NCBI GenBank assembly: GCA_037132255.1
Contig: JBAXPN010000006.1
Span: 1-51,469, forward strand
From: Candidatus Falkowbacteria bacterium
Lineage (GTDB): Bacteria > Patescibacteriota > Patescibacteriia > Patescibacteriales > UBA12465
Direction: 5' to 3'
Length of the DNA stretch: 51,469 nt
Shown here: in pieces, positions 1 to 24,810 of the stretch
Layout of the letters: every line of letters starts with the position of its first letter
Numbering within the stretch: the stretch's first letter is position 1
Notes under the pieces: model-generated
The model's database searches: none
Told to the model about the DNA's origin: nothing
What the model saw: only the letters and a program-made list of their open reading frames with translations
Program-made: the position numbers and the translations under genes

Positions 1-126
1 ATTTCTTTAACAAAAAAATCCCAATCCCAAATTGGCTTGAGTTCAAGTTTATTTAATTAATTATTTTTTCTATAAATCACTTTTTTTAGTTAAAAAAGTG
101 TTAATGTTTTTATAATATAACATCGG

Positions 127-1560
127 CTATTGTTTGTCAACATGCATTTTTTCAGTGATTGCCTCTTTTACGGCAACGCGGTCATCCCAAGGAATTTGCT
201 GTTCTCCCTCAACGCAAATATATTGCTCCGCTCCTTTGCCGGTAAATAGGAGTAAATCGCCTTCTTCGGCTAATAATAGCGCTTTTCTTATTGCCTCGCG
301 CCGATCTAAAATTTTAAAGAGATTGTTATTTAATATCTTGCCTAATTCCTCTGCTCCGGCGGCTACCTCATTTATAATATCTGTCGGGTTTTCGTCATAT
401 GGGTCCTCGTTGGTCACTATGACAATATCCGCATTCTCAGCAGCAATTCTCCCTAAGATTGGCCGACGTGCTTTATCTCTTCCACCGCCAGTTGAGCCTA
501 AGAGGTGAATAACTTTATTTCTCGGAATAAGTGCGACCGCTTGATATAGTTTCTCAAGCGCTTTCGGCTCAAAAGAATAATCAACTATCGCCGTAAAGTT
601 TTGGCCAGCTGAAATTAATTCTAGTTTCCCCGGCAAACCCGAAATACTTTCAAGCCCGGATTTTATTTTCGCAGTTGAGATTCTTTGATTAAGTCCAACG
701 GCGTAAGCTGAGATAGCGTTAAAAGCATTAAATTCTCCAAGCAGGTTTAATTTAATATCCTGTTTATCAATAATTAAAGAAATTCCTTCCGGATGAGAAT
801 TAATATCAGATCCGCGAACAACAGCAAAATCTTTCACTATCGCCTCGCTATTTAAATTTTTAGTAAAATAATCGGCATTAATCTCTGACCGAAAAGTATA
901 AGCCATCTTCGCTTCGCTCCAAAAATTCAAGAAATAATTAGCGTGTTCGTCGTCGCCATTAACAATAATCGTCTTTAAAACTCGGCTTAAATCTAGTTTT
1001 TTTAAATTGCTCTTAGGACTAATTACCTCTTTATTCTCATTAATATATTTGGTCGCACAATTTTTTAAATGCGCGAATAAAAGGCCCTTCGCTTCTTTAT
1101 ATTTTTCAAATGTACCATGGGACTCAATATGCTCAGGATATAAACCGGTAAAAATAATTACATCATAATTAATAAAGCGGTGACGGAATTGTTTAATGCC
1201 CTCAGAAGTTGTTTCCACGATTGCATAGCGGCATTTATTTTTTAGCATTTGCTGCAAGGTTCTCTGGATAAACAAGCGCCCCGGCATTGTCATTTTCTTA
1301 TCATTAAGCCATTCCGAATTACCATCAGAAAAACTTGCTGTCGACGTAAACCCAGTCTTATAGCCAGCGCCGGAAAGCATCTTGGCAAGAAGATAGACAG
1401 TCGATGTTTTTCCAGCCGTACCTGTTACGCCAATAACTATTAATTTTCGACTCGGAAAACGATAAACTAAAGCTGCTATCCAAGCAACAAAAAAATGGTA
1501 AAGCGGTTGTAGAGCTTTAAATAATTTATGAGGAAGAAGCTTTTTAATTCGTTTTAGCAT
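127..1560 (-). CDS. murE: Mur ligase, MurE-type (UDP-MurNAc-tripeptide synthetase)
   Basis: GVTGTAGKTST P-loop, PEHIESHG, VDYSFEP, GGGRD, NEDPY and GKGAE motifs. Start placed at ATG 1560 (MLKR) because TG-n-TATAAT lies 7 nt upstream. Confidence 0.85.
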   Translation of the reverse strand: MLKRIKKLLPHKLFKALQPLYHFFVAWIAALVYRFPSRKLIVIGVTGTAGKTSTVYLLAKMLSGAGYKTGFTSTASFSDGNSEWLNDKKMTMPGRLFIQRTLQQMLKNKCRYAIVETTSEGIKQFRHRFINYDVIIFTGLYPEHIESHGTFEKYKEAKGLLFAHLKNCATKYINENKEVISPKSNLKKLDLSRVLKTIIVNGDDEHANYFLNFWSEAKMAYTFRSEINADYFTKNLNSEAIVKDFAVVRGSDINSHPEGISLIIDKQDIKLNLLGEFNAFNAISAYAVGLNQRISTAKIKSGLESISGLPGKLELISAGQNFTAIVDYSFEPKALEKLYQAVALIPRNKVIHLLGSTGGGRDKARRPILGRIAAENADIVIVTNEDPYDENPTDIINEVAAGAEELGKILNNNLFKILDRREAIRKALLLAEEGDLLLFTGKGAEQYICVEGEQQIPWDDRVAVKEAITEKMHVDKQ

Positions 1561-1621
1561 ATAAGACATTATAACAGAGAAAGAGAAAAATAAAAAAGAG
1601 CAGGAAGGGGGTGCAAAAAAC

Positions 1622-1730
1622 AAAAACCACCCCGATTCCGAGAGGTGATTTTGTTTAATTTTATACTTTTGTTATACGTAATTGGTCCGGGGAATCAATT
1701 TAATCTCCCTTCCAATTATCTCTAATAATA
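1622..1730 (-). ncRNA. Candidate small RNA or leader transcript with a hairpin and intrinsic terminator
   Basis: Minus-strand TTGATT(1765-1760)-17-TATAAT(1742-1737), hairpin at 1679-1718, terminator hairpin ~1622-1652 followed by a T-run. Confidence 0.4.
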
Positions 1731-17986: not shown

Positions 17987-20779
17987 ATGTCTAAAACAAA
18001 ACCCAAATTAATCATTATTGACGGAAACGCCCTTATTCATCGGAGTTTTCATGCCCTGCCGCCAACACTACGCACTAAAAAAGGCGTGCTAGTTAATGCT
18101 GTTTATGGCTTCACTTCTTTTCTCCTAAAAGCCTTAAATGAATTTCATCCCGAATATGTAGTTTTAACATTAGATAAAAAGGGACCAACCTTTCGCCATG
18201 AAGCCTATACCGAATACAAGGCGACGCGCGTTAAGGCGCCGGACGAATTATATGAACAAATCCCTTTGGTAAAAAAAGTGGCCGAAGCTTTTAATATTCC
18301 GATCTTCGAATTAAGCGGTTTTGAAGCGGACGATCTTATTGGCACAATTTGTGAGAAAACAAAAAAAGAAAAAAACCTAGAAAAAATAATTATTACCGGC
18401 GATCTTGATACTTTGCAATTAATCGACAACCAGACAAAAGTTTATACAATGAGCCGCGGACTCTCAGATAGTGTTTTATATGGCGCCGAAGAAGTTCGTG
18501 CACGATACAGTCTTAACCCCGACCAAATTATTGATTATAAAGCTTTACGCGGTGATGTGAGCGATAATATTCCGGGCGTTAAAGGTATCGGCGAAAAAAC
18601 GGCCAGCGAATTACTAGTTGAATTTAAAACTCTTGATGGCGTTTATACGGCGGCCGAAAAAAATAGCGCGAAAATTAAGCCACGCATCATTGAATTATTA
18701 AAAGAACATAAAGATAGCGCCTATTTAAGTCAAAGCTTGGCAACTATTCATCTCGAAGCACCTCTAAAATTTTCCCTTCGCGATATTAGCTTTACCTCAT
18801 TCAAGCTAGAGAATGTCATGGAGGTATTTAGTGAATTTGAGTTTAAATCACTTCTGATTAAAGTTAAGGACCTGCGTGACAATATTAATAAAGCACATGA
18901 TCGTCAGGAAAGTTCTTCGGCAAAAACTAATAGCAAAGAAACCGAGAATCAGGGCGATGGACAAAAATCGGGTGAACTTAAATTTGTGCGTAATGCTAAA
19001 AAATTTAATTATCAATTAGTTGATGACGATAAAAAATTCTCCAGTTTTTTAAAAAAACTAAAAATTCAAAAAGAGTTTGCGCTCGATACTGAAACTTCAG
19101 GACTCGACCCAATAACAGCCGAATTAATCGGCATCAGTTTTTCCTGGAAAGAAGGCGAGGCCTATTTTATTATTATTAATAAAAATAGATTAAGTGAATT
19201 AAAACCAATTTTGGAGAATACTAAAATAAAAAAGTTTGGTCATAATTTGAAATTTGATTGGCGCGTTTTAAAAAACCAGGGAGTAGAACTAAATGGTTTA
19301 AACTTCGATACGATGATTGCTTCCTATTTATTAAACCCGGGGAACCGCCAACACAATTTAGATTCAATCGTCTTTACTGAGCTCGGTTTTGAAAAAATCA
19401 GTAAAAGTAATCTAGCCTCTACGCAGCCCGCCCAACTATCAATAGACTTCAAAGCGCTTGATCCAGAAAAATTAAGTCTTTATTCCTGCGAAGATGCTGA
19501 TTTTACGAACCGCCTGGTTAAAATATTAAGTAAACGCCTTAAGACGGAAGGGCTTAGCGATTTATTTAATCGTCTTGAAATGCCGCTGGTCGCCATACTC
19601 GGCGAAGTAGAAAATAATGGGATAATATTAGACTTAGAGCCGCTAAAACTTTTAGACAAAGAGGTTGGCGGAAAACTCGCGCAACTTGAAAAAAATATTC
19701 ATAAGCTAGCAAAAGTAAAATTCAATATTAATTCAACCAAGCAATTAAAAGAAGTTCTCTTTGAAAAATTAGCCATTCCGACTGATAATATTAAAAAAAC
19801 AAAAACTGGTTTTTCGACCGCCGAAGATGAACTCGAGAAATTAAATGATCTTCACCCCATAATCCCGCAACTCCGCGACTATCGAGAATTAAATAAACTA
19901 CAAACAACTTATTTAAATGCTTTGCCAACAATGGTCAACGCGAAGACAGGGCGAATCCATACTAACTTTAACCAAACTGTGGCCGCCACTGGTCGCCTTT
20001 CTTCAAACGACCCAAATCTCCAAAATATTCCAACCCGAACCGAAGAAGGACGTAAAGTCAGAGCGGCTTTCGTTGCTGCGCCTGGCTTCCGTCTAATTGG
20101 TTTCGATTATTCACAAATCGAACTTCGTCTCGCCGCCCATATTTCCGGAGATAAAAAAATGATTAGCGCTTTTAAAAATAAAGAAGATATTCATACGGCA
20201 ACGGCCGCGGAAATAAACGGCGTCAAATTAAGCGAGGTGGCAAAAAATATGCGCCGCGAAGCAAAGGCGATTAATTTTGGCATTCTCTACGGGCAAGGGC
20301 CGCATGGTCTAAGCCAATCAGCCGGTATTCCCTATTGGCAAGCAAATGAATTTATTAAAAAATATTGGGAAGTTTATCCGAGTGTTAAAAAAATGATTGA
20401 TAGTTCAATTAAAGAGGCGAGAAAAAATTCTTATGCCATTACTTTATTTGGACGTAAGCGCCCATTACCGGAAATAAATTCTAGCATTCCGATGATTAGA
20501 AAAAGTGCTGAGCGCATGGCGATAAATACGCCGCTCCAAGGAACAGCGGCCGACTTAATAAAGATGGCAATGATTAAAGTTGAAGAATTAATTAAAGGCC
20601 AAGAAGATGATATCCGAATGCTTCTACAGATTCACGATGAGTTGATTTTTGAAATTAAAAAAGATAAGATTAGTTTTTATTCGCCGAAAATAAGAGATAT
20701 CATGCAAGATGTCTTAAAGTTACGCGTGCCAATAATCGTTGATGAAAGTATTGGTGATAATTGGGGCGAACTAAAATAA
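17987..20779 (+). CDS. polA: DNA polymerase I
   Basis: 5'-3' exonuclease (IDGNAL, EADD), 3'-5' exonuclease (DTET, HNLKFD, YSCEDA), polymerase motifs DYSQIELR, KAINFG.LYG and QIHDEL. Confidence 0.98.
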   Translation: MSKTKPKLIIIDGNALIHRSFHALPPTLRTKKGVLVNAVYGFTSFLLKALNEFHPEYVVLTLDKKGPTFRHEAYTEYKATRVKAPDELYEQIPLVKKVAEAFNIPIFELSGFEADDLIGTICEKTKKEKNLEKIIITGDLDTLQLIDNQTKVYTMSRGLSDSVLYGAEEVRARYSLNPDQIIDYKALRGDVSDNIPGVKGIGEKTASELLVEFKTLDGVYTAAEKNSAKIKPRIIELLKEHKDSAYLSQSLATIHLEAPLKFSLRDISFTSFKLENVMEVFSEFEFKSLLIKVKDLRDNINKAHDRQESSSAKTNSKETENQGDGQKSGELKFVRNAKKFNYQLVDDDKKFSSFLKKLKIQKEFALDTETSGLDPITAELIGISFSWKEGEAYFIIINKNRLSELKPILENTKIKKFGHNLKFDWRVLKNQGVELNGLNFDTMIASYLLNPGNRQHNLDSIVFTELGFEKISKSNLASTQPAQLSIDFKALDPEKLSLYSCEDADFTNRLVKILSKRLKTEGLSDLFNRLEMPLVAILGEVENNGIILDLEPLKLLDKEVGGKLAQLEKNIHKLAKVKFNINSTKQLKEVLFEKLAIPTDNIKKTKTGFSTAEDELEKLNDLHPIIPQLRDYRELNKLQTTYLNALPTMVNAKTGRIHTNFNQTVAATGRLSSNDPNLQNIPTRTEEGRKVRAAFVAAPGFRLIGFDYSQIELRLAAHISGDKKMISAFKNKEDIHTATAAEINGVKLSEVAKNMRREAKAINFGILYGQGPHGLSQSAGIPYWQANEFIKKYWEVYPSVKKMIDSSIKEARKNSYAITLFGRKRPLPEINSSIPMIRKSAERMAINTPLQGTAADLIKMAMIKVEELIKGQEDDIRMLLQIHDELIFEIKKDKISFYSPKIRDIMQDVLKLRVPIIVDESIGDNWGELK

Positions 20780-20840: not shown

Positions 20841-21101
20841 TTAGGTCACCACTGCTTGGTTATCGGGAACAGGATCTTCTTCCTCGGGATAAACCAACAT
20901 GGCTGGTATCACGGAAAGGATTCCTCCGATAAGGATCAGGTAGGCTACCCATTGATGACTAGATGGTTCAAACCAGGCAAGCGGTTGCATTGTAAACAGG
21001 CAAAGGTCAACACCGAAGCCAAAGTACAAAATAACATTTACCACCAAGAGAGCAAAGATGAACCAGCAAAAGTAAGACAGGATTTTTCTGAATTTTTTCA
21101 T
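20841..21101 (-). CDS. Small 2-TM hypothetical protein
   Basis: 86-aa ORF with two hydrophobic helices; 5' leader resembles that of dgt. Confidence 0.6.
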   Translation of the reverse strand: MKKFRKILSYFCWFIFALLVVNVILYFGFGVDLCLFTMQPLAWFEPSSHQWVAYLILIGGILSVIPAMLVYPEEEDPVPDNQAVVT

Positions 21102-21202: not shown

Positions 21203-23836
21203 ATGAAAATAGAAATTAAAAAACCGAATATTTTTACATTTGAATCTTATTTTATTAATGAAAAATTAAATACGATTAGTTTTAATTATTCTTTTAATAA
21301 TGGACTTAAATTTACCGAGTCAATTTCTCTTGGGGGTGGCCAAATTAATTGGAAAGGGCTTAACCACGAATTGATTAATCGAATTGTTTTCAATCTTCAG
21401 CTCGCGCTTGGCATCGGCTACTATAAAACATACTGCCCAAAAAAAATTGTTATTAAAAATGGGGTTCTCTCAAAAGCTGAGGCAGTGTTCTGGAATAAAC
21501 TTTATACCAAAGGTCTCGGTGAATTTTTTTATCGCAATAAAATTGATTACCGCGGTCTAATAAATTTCCCTTATCAAAAAAACCAAAAGACTCAGGCAAT
21601 TAATATTAAGCTTTCTAATAATGTCTTACTTCCTTGGGGCGGAGGGAAAGATTCTTGCGTCTCTGCCGAACTATTAAAAGAGCTTGGCCATGATTTTACC
21701 CTAATTACTTTGCGCGATAGCGATATCCAAAGAGCGACGGCGAAAATTAGCGGCAAAAGAAGAATTATAAATGAGCGGACAATCGACCCAGCCTTAATCG
21801 AATTAAATAAAACCGGAGTTTATAACGGACATATTCCTATTTCAGCTATCTACTCCTGGACCACTGTTTTAACGGCCGCTCTCTATAATTACCGCCATAT
21901 TATTTATTCAAACGAAGCCAGCGCTAATTTCGGGAATGTTAAATATCTAGGCTCAGAAATTAATCACCAATATAGCAAGTCACTTGAATTTGAAAATGAC
22001 TTTCGAGAATATTTAAAAAACTTTGTCTCCCCAGATATTAATCATTTTAGTTCCCTGCGCCAGTTTTCTGATTTAAAAATCAGCCGTCTTTTTTCTAAAT
22101 ATCCACAATATTTTCCCGTATTCTCAAGTTGTAATCGTAATTTTTCAATTACTAAACATTCCTCCTCACGCTGGTGTGGTAAGTGCCCGAAATGCTTATT
22201 TACTTTCTCACAACTTGCCGCTTATATTGAGCGGCCAAAATTAATTAATATCTTTGGACAAAATCTTTTTGCCAAAAAAGAGCTCCTGCCTTTATTCCAA
22301 GAACTCTGGGGCGAAAAAAGATTTAAACCTTTTGACTGCGTCGGCACGCCGAACGAAGTTAGGGCTGCGTTACTTCTTGTCAGTGCAAAGGCGGCATGGA
22401 GAGAAGATTATATTGTTAAGTATTTTCAAAAAAATATTGCCTCTAAAATTAACAAGCCCGAAAACATTATTAGCGCTGCTCTAAAAAATAAAAGTGAACA
22501 TAATATTCCGGCTGACTTCCGCTCAACTTTAATTCTTGGTTACGGGCTAGAAGGAAAATTCGCTTATTCTTATTTACGTCATAAATACCCGGATTTCAAA
22601 TTTGCGTTAGCCGATAAAAAACCCATTACAATTTCCGACAAAAAGGTTAAAGTTATTTCCGGCCAAAATTATTTAGATGCTATAAATGATTACGAAGTGA
22701 TTATCAAATCTCCTGGCATTAGCAATTTTGAGCCGAGACTAATTAAAGCAAAGTCTGCCGGGCGAGAAATAAGCTCGATAACTAACATTTTTCTTAGCGT
22801 CTATGGAGCGCAAACTATTGGCGTTACCGGGACCAAAGGAAAAAGCACAACCGCTTCTTTAATTTACGAAATATTAAAAGCCAGCGGAAAAAAAGTTTAT
22901 CTTATTGGTAATATCGGTTTCGATCCACTTGAACATTTAACAGCCAAATTCGACGAGAACAAAATATTTGTTTACGAATTATCGAGCTATCAATTATCCA
23001 TTGCAGATCAGAGTCCTCATATTGCAGTTTTTATTAATATATTTCCCGACCACCTTCCCTATCACCAAGGTTTTAATAATTATTTCCGGGCCAAAACCAA
23101 TATTACGAATTTCCAAAAAAATAATGATTTCTTAGTATATAATTCCGAATACGAGGCAATCAAAAAATTAGCTGCAAACACAAAGGCGAAGGCAGTATCT
23201 TATCTTAAGGAGTGCTCGATTCAAAATGATAGTATTTATTATCACAAAGAAAAAATAATAGCACTAAATAAAATTAAACTTCTCGGAACTCATAATCTAA
23301 AGAATATTATGGCGGCGATCTGCGTCGCCAAACAATATAAAGCGGCGGATACGGCCATCTATAAAGCCTTAGTAAAATTTGTTAATCTTGAACATCGCCT
23401 CCAATTCGTTGGTCAATTTAAAGGTATCTCATTTTACGATGATGCTATTTCAACTACTCCAGAATCAACGCTTGTTGCCCTTGAAGTCTTCAAAGAAAAA
23501 ATTGGAACAATTATTCTTGGCGGCGAAGATAGAGGCTATAAGTTTAGCACGCTAGCAAAACGCTTAGCCGAATTAAAAATTGAAAATTTTGTTTTCTTCC
23601 CTGATAGCGGAGAAAAGATCGCCAAAGAAATTAAGCTTGCCTACCAGAAAAAGAAATTAACATTACCAAAAATTCTCTTTACTAAAAATATGGACGCGGC
23701 AGTAAAATTTTCCTACCAGAACACCAAGCCTGAACAAGTCTGTTTACTCTCTACTGCTTCTCCAAGCTATTCCCTGTTTAAAGATTTCAAGGAAAAAGGA
23801 AATTTATTTCAATCGGCTATAAAAAAAATTCAATAA
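21203..23836 (+). CDS. MurL-like epimerase fused to MurD(2)-like ligase
   Basis: N-half GLGEFFYRN, GGGKDS, NGHIP, SNEASA, NHQYSKS, SSCNRNF and WCGKCPKC; C-half LGYGLEG, GTKGKST, ELSSYQL, PDHL and HRL. Confidence 0.85.
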   Translation: MKIEIKKPNIFTFESYFINEKLNTISFNYSFNNGLKFTESISLGGGQINWKGLNHELINRIVFNLQLALGIGYYKTYCPKKIVIKNGVLSKAEAVFWNKLYTKGLGEFFYRNKIDYRGLINFPYQKNQKTQAINIKLSNNVLLPWGGGKDSCVSAELLKELGHDFTLITLRDSDIQRATAKISGKRRIINERTIDPALIELNKTGVYNGHIPISAIYSWTTVLTAALYNYRHIIYSNEASANFGNVKYLGSEINHQYSKSLEFENDFREYLKNFVSPDINHFSSLRQFSDLKISRLFSKYPQYFPVFSSCNRNFSITKHSSSRWCGKCPKCLFTFSQLAAYIERPKLINIFGQNLFAKKELLPLFQELWGEKRFKPFDCVGTPNEVRAALLLVSAKAAWREDYIVKYFQKNIASKINKPENIISAALKNKSEHNIPADFRSTLILGYGLEGKFAYSYLRHKYPDFKFALADKKPITISDKKVKVISGQNYLDAINDYEVIIKSPGISNFEPRLIKAKSAGREISSITNIFLSVYGAQTIGVTGTKGKSTTASLIYEILKASGKKVYLIGNIGFDPLEHLTAKFDENKIFVYELSSYQLSIADQSPHIAVFINIFPDHLPYHQGFNNYFRAKTNITNFQKNNDFLVYNSEYEAIKKLAANTKAKAVSYLKECSIQNDSIYYHKEKIIALNKIKLLGTHNLKNIMAAICVAKQYKAADTAIYKALVKFVNLEHRLQFVGQFKGISFYDDAISTTPESTLVALEVFKEKIGTIILGGEDRGYKFSTLAKRLAELKIENFVFFPDSGEKIAKEIKLAYQKKKLTLPKILFTKNMDAAVKFSYQNTKPEQVCLLSTASPSYSLFKDFKEKGNLFQSAIKKIQ

Positions 23837-23841
23837 ATAAA

Positions 23842-24810
23842 ATGATCATATTTTTACACGGCGCCGATTCCTTCCGCAGCCATCGGATGCTCCTGGAAAT
23901 GAAAAAAAAGTTTATAAGCGACACTGACCATGATTCGAATAGTTTAAGTTTACTCGACGGTCAAGCGACAACTCTAAAAGAAATCGGCGAAAAAATAAAT
24001 ACCGGTTCGCTTTTTGTAAAAAAGCGGATGGTTATTATCGAAAATATATTCAAAAATAAAAAAACTAAAATATTTACTGAGCTCGCTGATTACCTTAAGA
24101 AGTTTTCCGATAGCGAAGATAATATAATTATTTTTATTGATGAAGAAGTTGGCGGGAAGAATAAAGTCTTAAAAGTAGATGCAAAAAAATTGTTTACTTT
24201 CTTAAACAAACAAAAATACGTCCAAGAATTCCCGCCACTTTCAAATATACAACTCCTAAGTTTTATTAAAAAAGAAGCATCAACATATAATAAAGAGATG
24301 GCTGCTAACGCCGCCGCTTCCCTCATAAATTTAGCCAACGGAGATTTATGGATTATGTCTAGTGAAATAAAAAAACTTTCTTTCCATACATCAGCTAAAA
24401 TTATTAGTGACAGCGATGTCCAAGAACTTTGCGCCGGAGCGATTAACGATAATATCTTTGCTTTAACCGATGCGCTTAGCGCCAAAAATAAAAACCTGGC
24501 TTTAAAATTATTAGAAGAACAATACGCCGCAGGACTTAGCGATGAATATCTAATCGCGATGCTAATCAGACAATTCAAAATTCTTCTCCAAATACGAACG
24601 GCGATTGATAGCAATTTAAGTCAGACCGAAATGGCAAGCCAATTAAAACTTCACCCCTTTGTTGTTAAAAAAGGATTATTTCAAGCGAAAAATTTTAGCG
24701 CCACTAATTTGAAAAATTACTTAAATCAATTGATTCGTTTGGACTTTTCAAATAAAAATGGTCTAAGTCAGATAAAAACTGAACTAATGTTACTTATTTC
24801 CACCCTCTAA
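23842..24810 (+). CDS. holA: DNA polymerase III delta subunit
   Basis: FLHGAD start, SLF..KR, EI.KL, IFALTDA and LHPFVVKK. Confidence 0.9.
   Translation: MIIFLHGADSFRSHRMLLEMKKKFISDTDHDSNSLSLLDGQATTLKEIGEKINTGSLFVKKRMVIIENIFKNKKTKIFTELADYLKKFSDSEDNIIIFIDEEVGGKNKVLKVDAKKLFTFLNKQKYVQEFPPLSNIQLLSFIKKEASTYNKEMAANAAASLINLANGDLWIMSSEIKKLSFHTSAKIISDSDVQELCAGAINDNIFALTDALSAKNKNLALKLLEEQYAAGLSDEYLIAMLIRQFKILLQIRTAIDSNLSQTEMASQLKLHPFVVKKGLFQAKNFSATNLKNYLNQLIRLDFSNKNGLSQIKTELMLLISTL

Follow-up and report, generated by a model that had tools for sequence, protein, structure and literature searches.

The window analysed here, a 51,469-nucleotide contig of a Candidatus Falkowbacteria bacterium, contains a gene (21203..23836, forward strand) that fuses two enzymes of peptidoglycan precursor synthesis. 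We consider it probable (roughly 0.85) that its product is a bifunctional enzyme performing both steps of the racemase-independent MurD2/MurL branch, in place of the glutamate racemase MurI. The gene is a single uninterrupted ATG-initiated ORF of 877 codons plus stop, and its product comprises an N-terminal MurL module (aa 1-442; 21203..22528, forward strand) and a C-terminal MurD2-type Mur ligase module (aa 443-877; 22529..23836, forward strand). The ligase module would join L-glutamate to UDP-MurNAc-L-Ala with the use of ATP, and the MurL module, a predicted QueC/QatC-like PP-loop ATPase, would adenylate the α-carboxylate of the terminal L-Glu, converting ATP to AMP, with C379 or conserved His/Lys residues as candidates for the base. 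This two-step route on one polypeptide would replace MurI in the organism, and the fusion may couple both steps. We infer the ligase and epimerase activities by analogy with the published enzymes of X. oryzae. As described in the consulted portions of two reviews, the MurL chemistry, its ATP-to-AMP stoichiometry and its one-way L-to-D direction come from the separate X. oryzae enzymes MurL (XOO_1319) and MurD2 (XOO_1320), with assayed orthologues in Micromonospora and Salinispora (PMC8788868, PMC5808125). The MurD2/MurL pathway itself is known, and the fused polypeptide is a variant of it.

In profile searches, residues 10-442 align with positions 9-442 of the 447 positions of the NCBIfam MurL model NF041275 (E 5.6e-120, 400.8 bits), a full-length match to a curated family. 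Residues 443-874 match the murD model TIGR01087 at 307.5 bits (cut-off 211.95), and the same half contains the Pfam Mur_ligase_M and Mur_ligase_C domains. As the MurL match ends at aa 442 and the murD match starts at aa 443, the domain boundary is placed at nt 22528/22529; the two matches adjoin directly, and a linker is absent. An AlphaFold2 model of the whole 877-aa protein has a pLDDT of 92.9 and a pTM of 0.87, with a pLDDT of 94-95 at the junction. The earlier note, made from the letters alone, had proposed an 877-aa ORF with a MurL-like N-half and a MurD C-half that meet at about nt 22510. The ORF and the two full-length matches, which identify both families, bear out this layout, and the proposed junction lies near the profile-based boundary. 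The motifs on which that reading had been built are likewise all found: GGGKDS at aa 146-151, NHQYSKS at 254-260, WCGKCPKC at 324-331, DAISTT at 747-752 and STASPSYS at 850-857.

The N-terminal half is a distant MurL, as its score falls below the NCBI equivalog cut-off of 700 bits. The NF041275 model was built on Xanthomonadales; the cut-off is exceeded in 31/31 genomes of a Xanthomonadaceae-type reference family and reached by none of 201 sampled genomes of Patescibacteria. The half shares 33-35% identity with 12 MurL proteins from one such family. Among 121 MurL sequences (12 of them over the cut-off), 30 positions show conservation of 98% or more; at each of these the window protein carries the conserved residue, and the family-invariant motifs (PP-loop GGKDS, NGH, NHQxSK, SCN, WCGxCPKC and KPFxCVG) are all present. 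The PP-loop GGGKDS (21638..21655, forward strand) is the predicted ATP pyrophosphatase or adenylation site, and includes G148, D150 and S151 among the conserved positions. The NHQYSKS motif (21962..21982, forward strand) contributes N254, H255, Q256, S258 and K259. It is followed by a cysteine cluster (22124..22195, forward strand) made up of SSCN (C310) and WCGKCPKC (C325, C328 and C331), all four of whose cysteines belong to the same conserved set. The FDCVG segment (aa 377-381; 22331..22345, forward strand) contains an invariant fifth cysteine, C379, which along with K375, P376 and V380 is conserved at the same level and is a candidate catalytic acid/base. The nearest ESM Atlas clusters of this half are all MurL families (MurL_N plus MurL_epimerase_C).

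A structure model of the MurL half (pLDDT 94.8) aligns with QatC over 314 residues (Z 19.6, rmsd 3.6, model residues 7..410), with QueC over model residues 138..345 (Z 13.3), and with Cap9 (Z 13.2), and its PP-loop core aligns with QueC, TtuA and NAD synthetase. The half is thus predicted from the model to adopt a PP-loop ATPase fold that is closest to QatC, followed by QueC and Cap9, which is consistent with the reported AMP-forming activation. The cysteine cluster falls within the QueC-aligned stretch, and we take the metal site of QueC to be its counterpart; by this analogy the cluster may constitute a putative QueC-like metal site. At the sequence level, the MurL half had no match to the Pfam QueC model (PF06508) at E<=1 and none to the PADLOC QatC or Cap9 models at E<=10. 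When the PDB was searched by sequence, all 35 matches fell within aa 443-877 and none in the N-terminal half.

The fusion is genuine and ancient. In two other samples, the contigs (S3, covering 21718-23059, and S4, covering 21425-23460) bridge nt 22528 with 0 differences, while those of X5 and X6 stop about 20 nt beyond the junction and are not counted as bridging. In at least 1108 protein clusters, 775-2210 aa long, a match to the MurL half was obtained at E<=1e-20; among the matches listed, MurL and Mur-ligase domains of Pfam occur together in 120/120 clusters. The fused architecture, maintained down to 41% identity, is thus common in databases and in the genomes of the phylum rather than rare. 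It was encountered in 7 of the 29 sampled genomes with MurL and in 14/80 public loci, with MurL N-terminal in 21/21 cases; in the other 22 genomes the two genes are separate, mostly adjacent and in unchanged order. For one such split pair (locus L013), complex prediction of MurL with the ligase gave an ipSAE of 0.00 in two runs made without controls, a value that carries no weight for or against binding.

Residues of the ligase half were mapped through an alignment to E. coli MurD. Its P-loop GTKGKST (aa 543-549; 22829..22849, forward strand) aligns with the E. coli GSNGKST that includes K115, and G543, K545, G546, K547, S548 and T549 do not vary among 60 fused homologues. According to the consulted parts of the reviews, the determinants of X. 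oryzae MurD2 are R358, P433, F435 and E197, the K319T variant of E. coli MurD acquires L-Glu acceptance, and E197D alone changed the stereospecificity of X. oryzae MurD2 (PMC8788868, PMC5808125). The window ligase has three of these four determinants, and lacks the counterpart of Glu197. Its GGEDRG motif (aa 773-778; 23519..23536, forward strand) provides Arg777, which corresponds to Lys348 of E. coli MurD and Arg358 of X. oryzae MurD2. Arg occupies this position in 26/28 MurL-linked ligases and in all 12 MurD2 proteins of the Xanthomonadaceae family, versus 1/31 MurI-linked ligases and 0/20 from genomes with neither enzyme. Nevertheless, Arg is insufficient by itself as a marker, because the best PDB match of this half, the S. 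agalactiae D-Glu MurD 3lk7, likewise has DRG, and the S. mutans MurD with Arg remains a D-Glu enzyme in the portions of the reviews consulted (PMC8788868, PMC5808125). The STASPSYS segment (aa 850-857; 23750..23773, forward strand) corresponds to S410-D417 of E. coli MurD, with Pro854 at the Ala414 position and Tyr856 at the Leu416 position (P433 and F435 in X. oryzae). Pro is found there in 19/27 MurL-linked ligases as against 0/51 ligases of MurL-less genomes, while an aromatic residue at the Leu416 position is non-discriminating, since ligases of MurL-less genomes have Phe there.

The remaining signature, DDAISTT (aa 746-752; 23438..23458, forward strand), corresponds to D317-N322 of E. coli MurD (DSKATN), with Ile in place of Lys319. 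The corresponding motif is DSISTT in 12/12 MurD2 proteins of the Xanthomonadaceae family, giving D[SA]ISTT as the form common to these and the window protein, and the full pattern of that family is E / DSISTT / DRG / SPGAPSF. The window protein has Asp616 where E. coli MurD has D182 and X. oryzae MurD2 has E197; Glu is found here in 16 and Asp in 12 of 28 MurL-linked ligases, and Glu in 12/12 of the Xanthomonadaceae family. Both replacements pointed out in the earlier note, of DSKATN by DAISTT and of SPACASxD by STASPSYS, are present, but loss of the Lys does not serve as a diagnostic, as only 3/31 ligases of MurI-bearing Patescibacteria keep it; in the second motif the informative change is that of Ala414 to Pro. 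One genome with MurL (G134) has a canonical Lys-type ligase.

Phylogenetic trees of the ligases show a split with 38 MurL-linked ligases of Patescibacteria and 18 proteobacterial MurD2 proteins on one side, where the window ligase falls, and 51 ligases from MurL-less genomes plus 5 exceptions on the other. The SH-aLRT support of the split, the only support measure of these trees, is 99 under LG+G4 (112 rows) and 99 under LG+C20 PMSF (a quick tree of 62 rows). The window ligase therefore groups with the MurD2 of genomes whose MurL exceeds the curated cut-off and is separated from MurI-linked MurD. Together, the determinants and the tree position suggest that the ligase half is of the MurD2 (L-Glu) type. 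Only three independent contrasts on the tree bear on the relation of MurL linkage to Arg348 or Pro414, too few for significance; Arg behaves as expected in one or two of them and in reverse in none. The residue associations with MurL linkage mostly reflect inheritance within one clade. Fused sequences occupy at least three places on the tree, with weak separating branches, and a single fusion followed by fissions, rather than several fusions, may account for this.

The host has a Patescibacteria genome of 1.1 Mb that is 97.9% complete, and in it we found no MurI (TIGR00067), no other member of the Asp/Glu racemase family (PF01177), no dat-type class-IV aminotransferase (PF01063) and no second murD. 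The absence of murI and dat, which the earlier note had set as a check, held at this level of completeness. In this genome MurL is thus partnered, by fusion, with a MurD2-type ligase where both MurI and Dat are missing. MurC, MurE, MurF, MurG and a PBP are present, and MurE (127..1623, reverse strand; TIGR01085, 316.6 bits, cut-off 257.3), which follows in the pathway and uses the D-Glu product, is encoded in the window itself. Across the phylum, a strong MurL match was obtained in 29/201 sampled genomes. MurI scores over its cut-off in 0/29 of these, versus 63 of the 172 others, and in six families (f12, f15, f17, f26, f40 and f55) a MurL genome without MurI has same-family relatives with MurI. 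A class-IV aminotransferase is present in 7/29 MurL genomes. Of 20 picked MurD-bearing genomes of the phylum, 18 have neither MurI nor MurL nor a class-IV aminotransferase; as many MurD-bearing Patescibacteria thus lack both routes, absence of MurI alone is no proof of a need for MurL.

This last observation lends some weight to the view that the ligase half acts as a D-Glu MurD, either canonical or of dual specificity, on D-Glu that the cell scavenges from a host or from its surroundings, with the MurL half only proofreading or salvaging precursors mischarged with L-Glu, as some other supply of D-Glu must exist in the phylum. The Asp at the E. coli D182 position and the Arg of the closest solved relative, a D-Glu MurD, are in keeping with it. 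However, we regard it as very unlikely, given that none of the 29 MurL genomes has MurI over its cut-off, that one route takes the place of the other within six families, and that the ligase shares I319, R348 and P414 with the MurD2 of the Xanthomonadaceae family and groups with them. The retention of a tight fusion down to 41% identity further argues for an obligatory two-step unit.

That the N-terminal half is instead a QueC/QatC-like adenylating enzyme catalyzing another reaction on the nucleotide-peptide, such as amidation of the activated carboxylate, appears highly improbable. QueC, QatC and Cap9, the closest folds, do activate a carboxylate and hand it to a nitrogen nucleophile, as stated in the consulted portions of the literature on them, and the protein scores under the MurL equivalog cut-off. 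Yet the MurL match is full-length and retains all family-invariant residues, the Pfam QueC and PADLOC models give no match while the nearest ESM Atlas clusters are exclusively MurL, and the distribution of MurL complements that of MurI. Such a reaction would also leave the organism with no predicted source of D-Glu. An assembly or gene-calling artefact that merged two neighbouring genes is conceivable in that the genes are separate in 22/29 MurL genomes, usually side by side in the same order, but its chance is close to nil: the ORF has no stop or frameshift, the S3 and S4 contigs cross the junction unchanged, the long clusters carrying the MurL half derive from many assemblies, and the junction is modelled with high confidence. 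The bifunctional MurL-MurD2 reading, as put forward in the earlier note, is hence supported by the profile matches, the junction seen in two other samples and in over a thousand clusters, the missing racemases, three MurD2 determinants and the grouping with MurD2.

With the X. oryzae system the window protein has in common the two enzyme families, the order of MurL followed by the ligase, the conserved MurL motifs, the Ile/Arg/Pro signature of MurD2 (DAISTT / DRG / STASPSY here versus DSISTT / DRG / SPGAPSF) and a genome without MurI or a D-amino-acid aminotransferase. It differs in being one linker-less polypeptide, where 12/12 loci of the Xanthomonadaceae family have two overlapping genes, in the low MurL identity noted above, and in having Asp for the Glu of E197, Tyr for the Phe of F435 and, where E. 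coli MurD has P411, Thr instead of Pro. The host phylum is also missing from the taxon list in the consulted parts of the reviews (PMC8788868, PMC5808125). Canonical MurD-MurI systems share the three-domain Mur ligase fold and the P-loop, but the window system has no MurI, Lys348 or Ala414, and its ligase lies opposite those of MurI-bearing Patescibacteria across the 99-supported split. QueC, QatC of QatABCD and Cap9 of type IV CBASS resemble the MurL half in predicted fold and in the succession of PP-loop and cysteine cluster, whereas there is no sequence-level match and identity in structural alignments is 9-15%. Furthermore, the MurL substrate is a UDP-sugar peptide and not a deazaguanine, and MurL is reported to epimerise this substrate instead of forming an amide.

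Other Mur fusions similarly unite, in a single polypeptide, steps of precursor synthesis that are successive or related, namely MurC/Ddl (PRK14573), MurE/MurF (PRK11929) and MurF/Alr (PRK11930) in NCBIfam, and a MurC-MurD-MurE protein in one sampled genome (G104), and members of the phylum appear to join such steps habitually. In these fusions, ligases are combined with other ligases or with D-Ala enzymes, whereas in MurL-MurD2 the partner of the ligase is the epimerase by which the stereochemistry of the ligase product is corrected. No description of a MurL-MurD fusion was found in a literature search outside the primary pathway papers, where a mention is possible, and the words "fused" or "fusion" are absent from both Dairi-lab reviews (PMC8788868, PMC5808125), in agreement with the earlier note, which knew of no characterised fusion. 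We likewise found no literature on MurD2 in Patescibacteria or in a fusion, as far as titles and abstract openings tell, none on MurL with Patescibacteria or CPR among the papers listed, and none linking MurL with QueC or the PP-loop; two papers on the QueC family do not contain "MurL".

The consulted portions of the reviews describe the MurD2/MurL pathway as occurring in only a few genera and as one against which narrow-spectrum agents could be directed, and MurL as being without known conserved domains (PMC8788868, PMC5808125). The predicted QatC/QueC-like fold would assign MurL to a structural family, and the occurrence of the pathway in 29 of the 201 genomes, where it excludes MurI and is fused in about a quarter of cases, extends it to Patescibacteria. 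Databases name the fused proteins "D-glutamate ligase" or "epimerase", never both, or label them as ordinary MurD; because such annotation gives just one function, metabolic reconstructions of Patescibacteria will miss the source of D-Glu. The single-gene version would be the simplest reagent for study of the epimerisation mechanism and for a direct test of channelling.

More tentatively, and with considerable doubt, the fused enzyme might be a channelling machine, and the MurD2/MurL route might have been born in Patescibacteria and then passed to Xanthomonadales and other Proteobacteria. On such a reading the L-Glu intermediate would stay on the enzyme and the two sites would be fixed relative to each other, in line with the pTM of 0.87 and the missing linker. 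The suggestion of a patescibacterial origin draws on the diversity of the route and its repeated swaps with MurI in the phylum. In the ligase trees the proteobacterial MurD2 proteins nest among Peribacteria-type sequences, and MurD2/MurL is also found in Marinicella, Myxococcota and Magnetococcales records.

The gene at 21203..23836 (+) of the window is a single unbroken open reading frame with an ATG start, coding for 877 aa and flanked on its 5' side by polA (17987..20779) and on its 3' side by holA (23842..24810). Its N-terminal half matches the NCBIfam MurL model with an E-value of 5.6e-120 and 400.8 bits, under the 700-bit equivalog cut-off, while aa 443-874 cover positions 3-440 of the 441 positions of the murD model TIGR01087 with 307.5 bits (cut-off 211.95). 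Both matches are full-length and abut without a linker. Pfam searches recover the Mur_ligase_M and Mur_ligase_C domains in the C half and gave no significant match for the N half. The unbroken frame and the two NCBIfam matches confirm the claim of the earlier note that MurL and MurD are joined in one polypeptide, and each of the motifs it quoted lies where it had been placed in the protein.

The fusion is real. The earlier note had allowed for an assembly artefact, and the domain boundary at nt 22528/22529 is spanned, with 0 differences, by contigs from two additional samples taken in the same study (covering 21718-23059 and 21425-23460); contigs from two further studies, which end about 20 nt beyond the boundary, were left out of this count. 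In three runs, foreign contigs match in short segments confined to 22816..22852; these represent the conserved ligase P-loop (GTKGKST) sequence of other organisms rather than a junction. polA and the fused gene are separated by 423 bp, within which lies an ORF of 86 aa (20841..21101, minus strand) with a hydrophobic, membrane-like product. An AlphaFold2 model of the whole protein has a pLDDT of 92.9 and a pTM of 0.87, and as the HMM matches abut and residues 431-450 reach a pLDDT of 94-95, the model suggests a fixed arrangement of the MurL and ligase modules. MurL is N-terminal in 21/21 fused proteins examined.

As a reference for both halves we used the genome family of a Thermomonas MAG (Xanthomonadaceae), to whose record a public locus had led. 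MurL scores over the 700-bit cut-off in 31/31 genomes of this family, and in the 12 loci fetched it is always followed by the ligase gene in an overlapping frame (split 12/12, fused 0/12). The window MurL half shows 33-35% identity to these 12 proteins. An alignment of 121 MurL sequences was built from the window protein, the 12 references, 80 public loci and 28 sequences of sampled Patescibacteria. Conservation reaches at least 98% at 30 positions, and the window protein has the prevailing residue at every one of them, including G148, D150 and S151 of the PP-loop, H210, N254-H255-Q256-S258-K259, S309-C310-N311, W324-C325-C328-K330-C331, K375-P376-C379-V380 and E385. On this sequence evidence the N half is a MurL.

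The AlphaFold2 model of aa 1-442 (pLDDT 94.8, pTM 0.93) retrieved with Foldseek QueC, TtuA, QatC, MnmA, TilS and NAD synthetase, all of them PP-loop ATPases. A second structural aligner placed QatC (9y02_B) first, with Z 19.6 and rmsd 3.6 over 314 residues (model 7..410), followed by QueC (3bl5, Z 13.3, model 138..345; 2pg3, Z 13.3, model 138..442) and Cap9 (9nto_B, Z 13.2), the remaining matches, YcfA and then other PP-loop ATPases, having Z of at most 9.5. Searches with Pfam and PADLOC models gave no sequence-level match of the N half to QueC, QatC or Cap9, and no link of MurL to QueC or PP-loop enzymes was found in a literature search. Reviews describe MurL as being without known conserved domains and as consuming ATP to form AMP (PMC8788868, PMC5808125); a PP-loop enzyme of the carboxylate-adenylating type fits this AMP formation.

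Residues of the ligase half were mapped to E. coli MurD via a HMMER alignment to PDB chain 1e0d, the numbering being checked on K115, N138 and H183, which we take to be published landmarks of this enzyme. The window has Asp616 at D182, Arg777 at K348, Pro854 at A414 and Tyr856 at L416, and D317-N322 (DSKATN) correspond to DAISTT, with Ile in place of K319. According to one review, E. coli D182, K348, A414 and L416 correspond to E197, R358, P433 and F435 of X. oryzae MurD2, whose double mutant E197D/R358K switches to D-Glu, and a K319T mutant of E. coli MurD gains acceptance of L-Glu (PMC8788868). Applied to the 12 Xanthomonadaceae ligases, the same mapping gives the residues that the review describes (Glu, DSISTT, DRG and SPGAPSF), which validates it. 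The window protein has Ile319, Ser320, Thr322, Asp-Arg-Gly and Pro414 (E. coli numbering) in common with these bona fide MurD2, whereas it differs in Asp at D182, Thr at P411 and Tyr instead of Phe at L416. Arg348 also occurs in the streptococcal D-Glu MurD, by the review and our mapping alike. Judged from these residues, the C-terminal ligase belongs to the MurD2 type.

To place these residues in context, we compared 28 MurL-linked loci with 31 MurI genomes and 20 with neither (79 of the 161 murD-positive genomes in our phylum sample). Arg at K348 is present in 26/28 MurL-linked ligases, against 1/31 and 0/20 in the other two sets; Pro at A414 (19/27) and Thr or Met at P411 (12/27) are absent from the 51 others, and Glu at D182 is found in 16/28 against 13/51. 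The replacement of DSKATN by DAISTT, noted earlier as a change in the D-Glu site, is present, but loss of K319 is not diagnostic by itself, because Lys is rare here throughout the phylum (0/28, 3/31 and 0/20, respectively). These associations with MurL mostly reflect descent within a single clade: the tree offers only 3 independent contrasts, with Arg in the expected direction in 1-2 and in the opposite direction in 0, too few for a test. At one locus (L015, G134:C3:25900-29800) MurL is convergent to a canonical Lys348-type MurD nearly the same as that of MurI-bearing congeners, and MurI was not found in this 96%-complete genome.

In a 79-row ligase tree, 23 MurL-linked ligases (16 split, 7 fused) are set apart by themselves from all other rows by a branch with SH-aLRT 100. 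Upon adding 18 proteobacterial MurD2 and further public loci, and dropping one truncated row, a 112-row tree is divided by a branch with SH-aLRT 99 into two sets of 56. The first comprises the 31 MurI-linked ligases, the 20 whose genomes lack both MurI and MurL, and 5 exceptional MurL-linked ones; the second comprises 38 Patescibacteria-type MurL-linked ligases and all 18 proteobacterial MurD2. A 62-row subset under LG+C20+F+G4 (PMSF) gave the same split (SH-aLRT 99). The rows nearest to the window ligase are L127, which is split and 55% identical, and three fused ones (L114, L115 and L136). Fused rows occupy at least three places, joined by weak branches, and may stem from one fusion event or from several. 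The proteobacterial MurD2 adjoin Peribacteria-type sequences in this unrooted tree, in which many rows fail the composition test, and their nesting there is only a lead. A small MurL-linked group (L014, L019, L033 and L034, from G087, G063, G010 and G178) lies among canonical MurD in every tree, with ligase preceding MurL in 3/4 and Arg at the K348 position in 3/4; here a MurD may have been recruited separately for L-Glu. Four loci from public records titled Gammaproteobacteria, Bacillota and Weeksellaceae (L115, L113, L136, L112) have MurL-linked ligases, two of them fused, that cluster within Patescibacteria sequences, reflecting either mislabelled bins or gene transfer.

The window's genome (1.11 Mb, 46 contigs) is 97.9% complete. 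As a racemase-independent route would predict, neither MurI (TIGR00067) nor the class-IV aminotransferases that include Dat (PF01063) were matched in it at E<=1, nor were the Asp/Glu racemases (PF01177); each of these models matches 11-14 of 14 control genomes. The fused gene is the only murD-scoring gene and the only predicted D-Glu entry. MurE (127..1623, minus strand; 316.6 bits), MurC (427.4 bits), MurF and MurG (281.8 and 244.9 bits, each slightly below its cut-off) and a PBP transpeptidase are present, and therefore peptidoglycan precursor synthesis is encoded. By extension from the published separate enzymes and the anatomy of the protein, the ligase half would add L-Glu and the PP-loop half would adenylate its new alpha-carboxylate; the activated residue would then lose a proton and regain one on the opposite face, with the invariant C379, H210, H255 and K259 as candidate bases, and hydrolysis would free the D-Glu product for MurE. 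QueC has a cysteine cluster with a bound metal, and by analogy the four-cysteine cluster of the MurL half probably holds one.

The fusion is conserved. The best 120 matches to the whole protein are all 811-952 aa long (query coverage 93-100%, identity 41-88%). Homologues with a named source belong to 'Patescibacteria group', Falkowbacteria, Moranbacteria, Uhrbacteria, Kuenenbacteria and the like. The MurL half retrieves at least 1108 clusters of 775-2210 aa at E<=1e-20, and MurL_N, MurL_epimerase_C and Mur-ligase Pfam domains occur together in 120/120 among the matches listed; at least 7083 of 8000 candidates scored are of standalone length (243-774 aa). Some standalone homologues (among P0164, P0215, P0234 and P0268) are named '7-cyano-7-deazaguanine synthase' (JGI) and others 'endonuclease domain-containing protein' (NCBI), which look like annotation errors; many are 'hypothetical protein'. 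Two reviews assign the pathway to Gamma- and Alphaproteobacteria and rare actinobacteria, with no mention of fused forms (PMC8788868, PMC5808125). The earlier note knew of no characterised fusion, and a literature search, with primary papers and supplements outside its scope, likewise found neither this fusion nor MurL in Patescibacteria. The ORF is thus one member of a large group, plainly visible in databases, for which we found no description in print.

Of 201 sampled genomes of the phylum, the window's own among them, 31 match MurL, 29 at E<=1e-57 and two weakly. Fused forms (open frames of 812-939 aa) occur in 7/29: the window's genome G000, and G058, G082, G102, G183, G145 and G193. Among the 22 split genomes MurL precedes the ligase on one strand in 16, follows it in 3, is convergent in 1 and is not adjacent within the fetched DNA in 2. 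MurI matched 84 genomes, 63 over the cut-off, and is over the cut-off in 0/29 MurL genomes (three have weak partial matches of 29-44 bits); if MurL and MurI were distributed independently, about 9 genomes should have both, a figure that ignores kinship among genomes. These counts take in an unpublished MurI-positive g48 genome (G154), on which alone no claim is made. Six families (f12, f15, f17, f26, f40, f55) contain a MurL genome lacking MurI alongside relatives with MurI, and the swap occurs within three genera (g77, g127, g48). A class-IV aminotransferase is present in 7/29 MurL genomes. PF01063 is absent from 18/20 picked genomes with high-scoring MurD and neither MurI nor MurL (present only in G061 and G099), and therefore some further D-Glu supply exists in the phylum.

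Fusions between Mur enzymes of successive steps seem to be customary in the phylum. One locus (L180:948-4964, plus strand; G104:C20) codes for a 1338-aa MurC-MurD-MurE triple fusion (aa 12-450, 464-888 and 902-1337, all above cut-offs). Another (L181:1210-2721, plus strand; G041:C2) codes, directly upstream of murD, for a 503-aa fusion of MurI (aa 2-262) to the peptidoglycan editing factor PgeF (aa 304-502).
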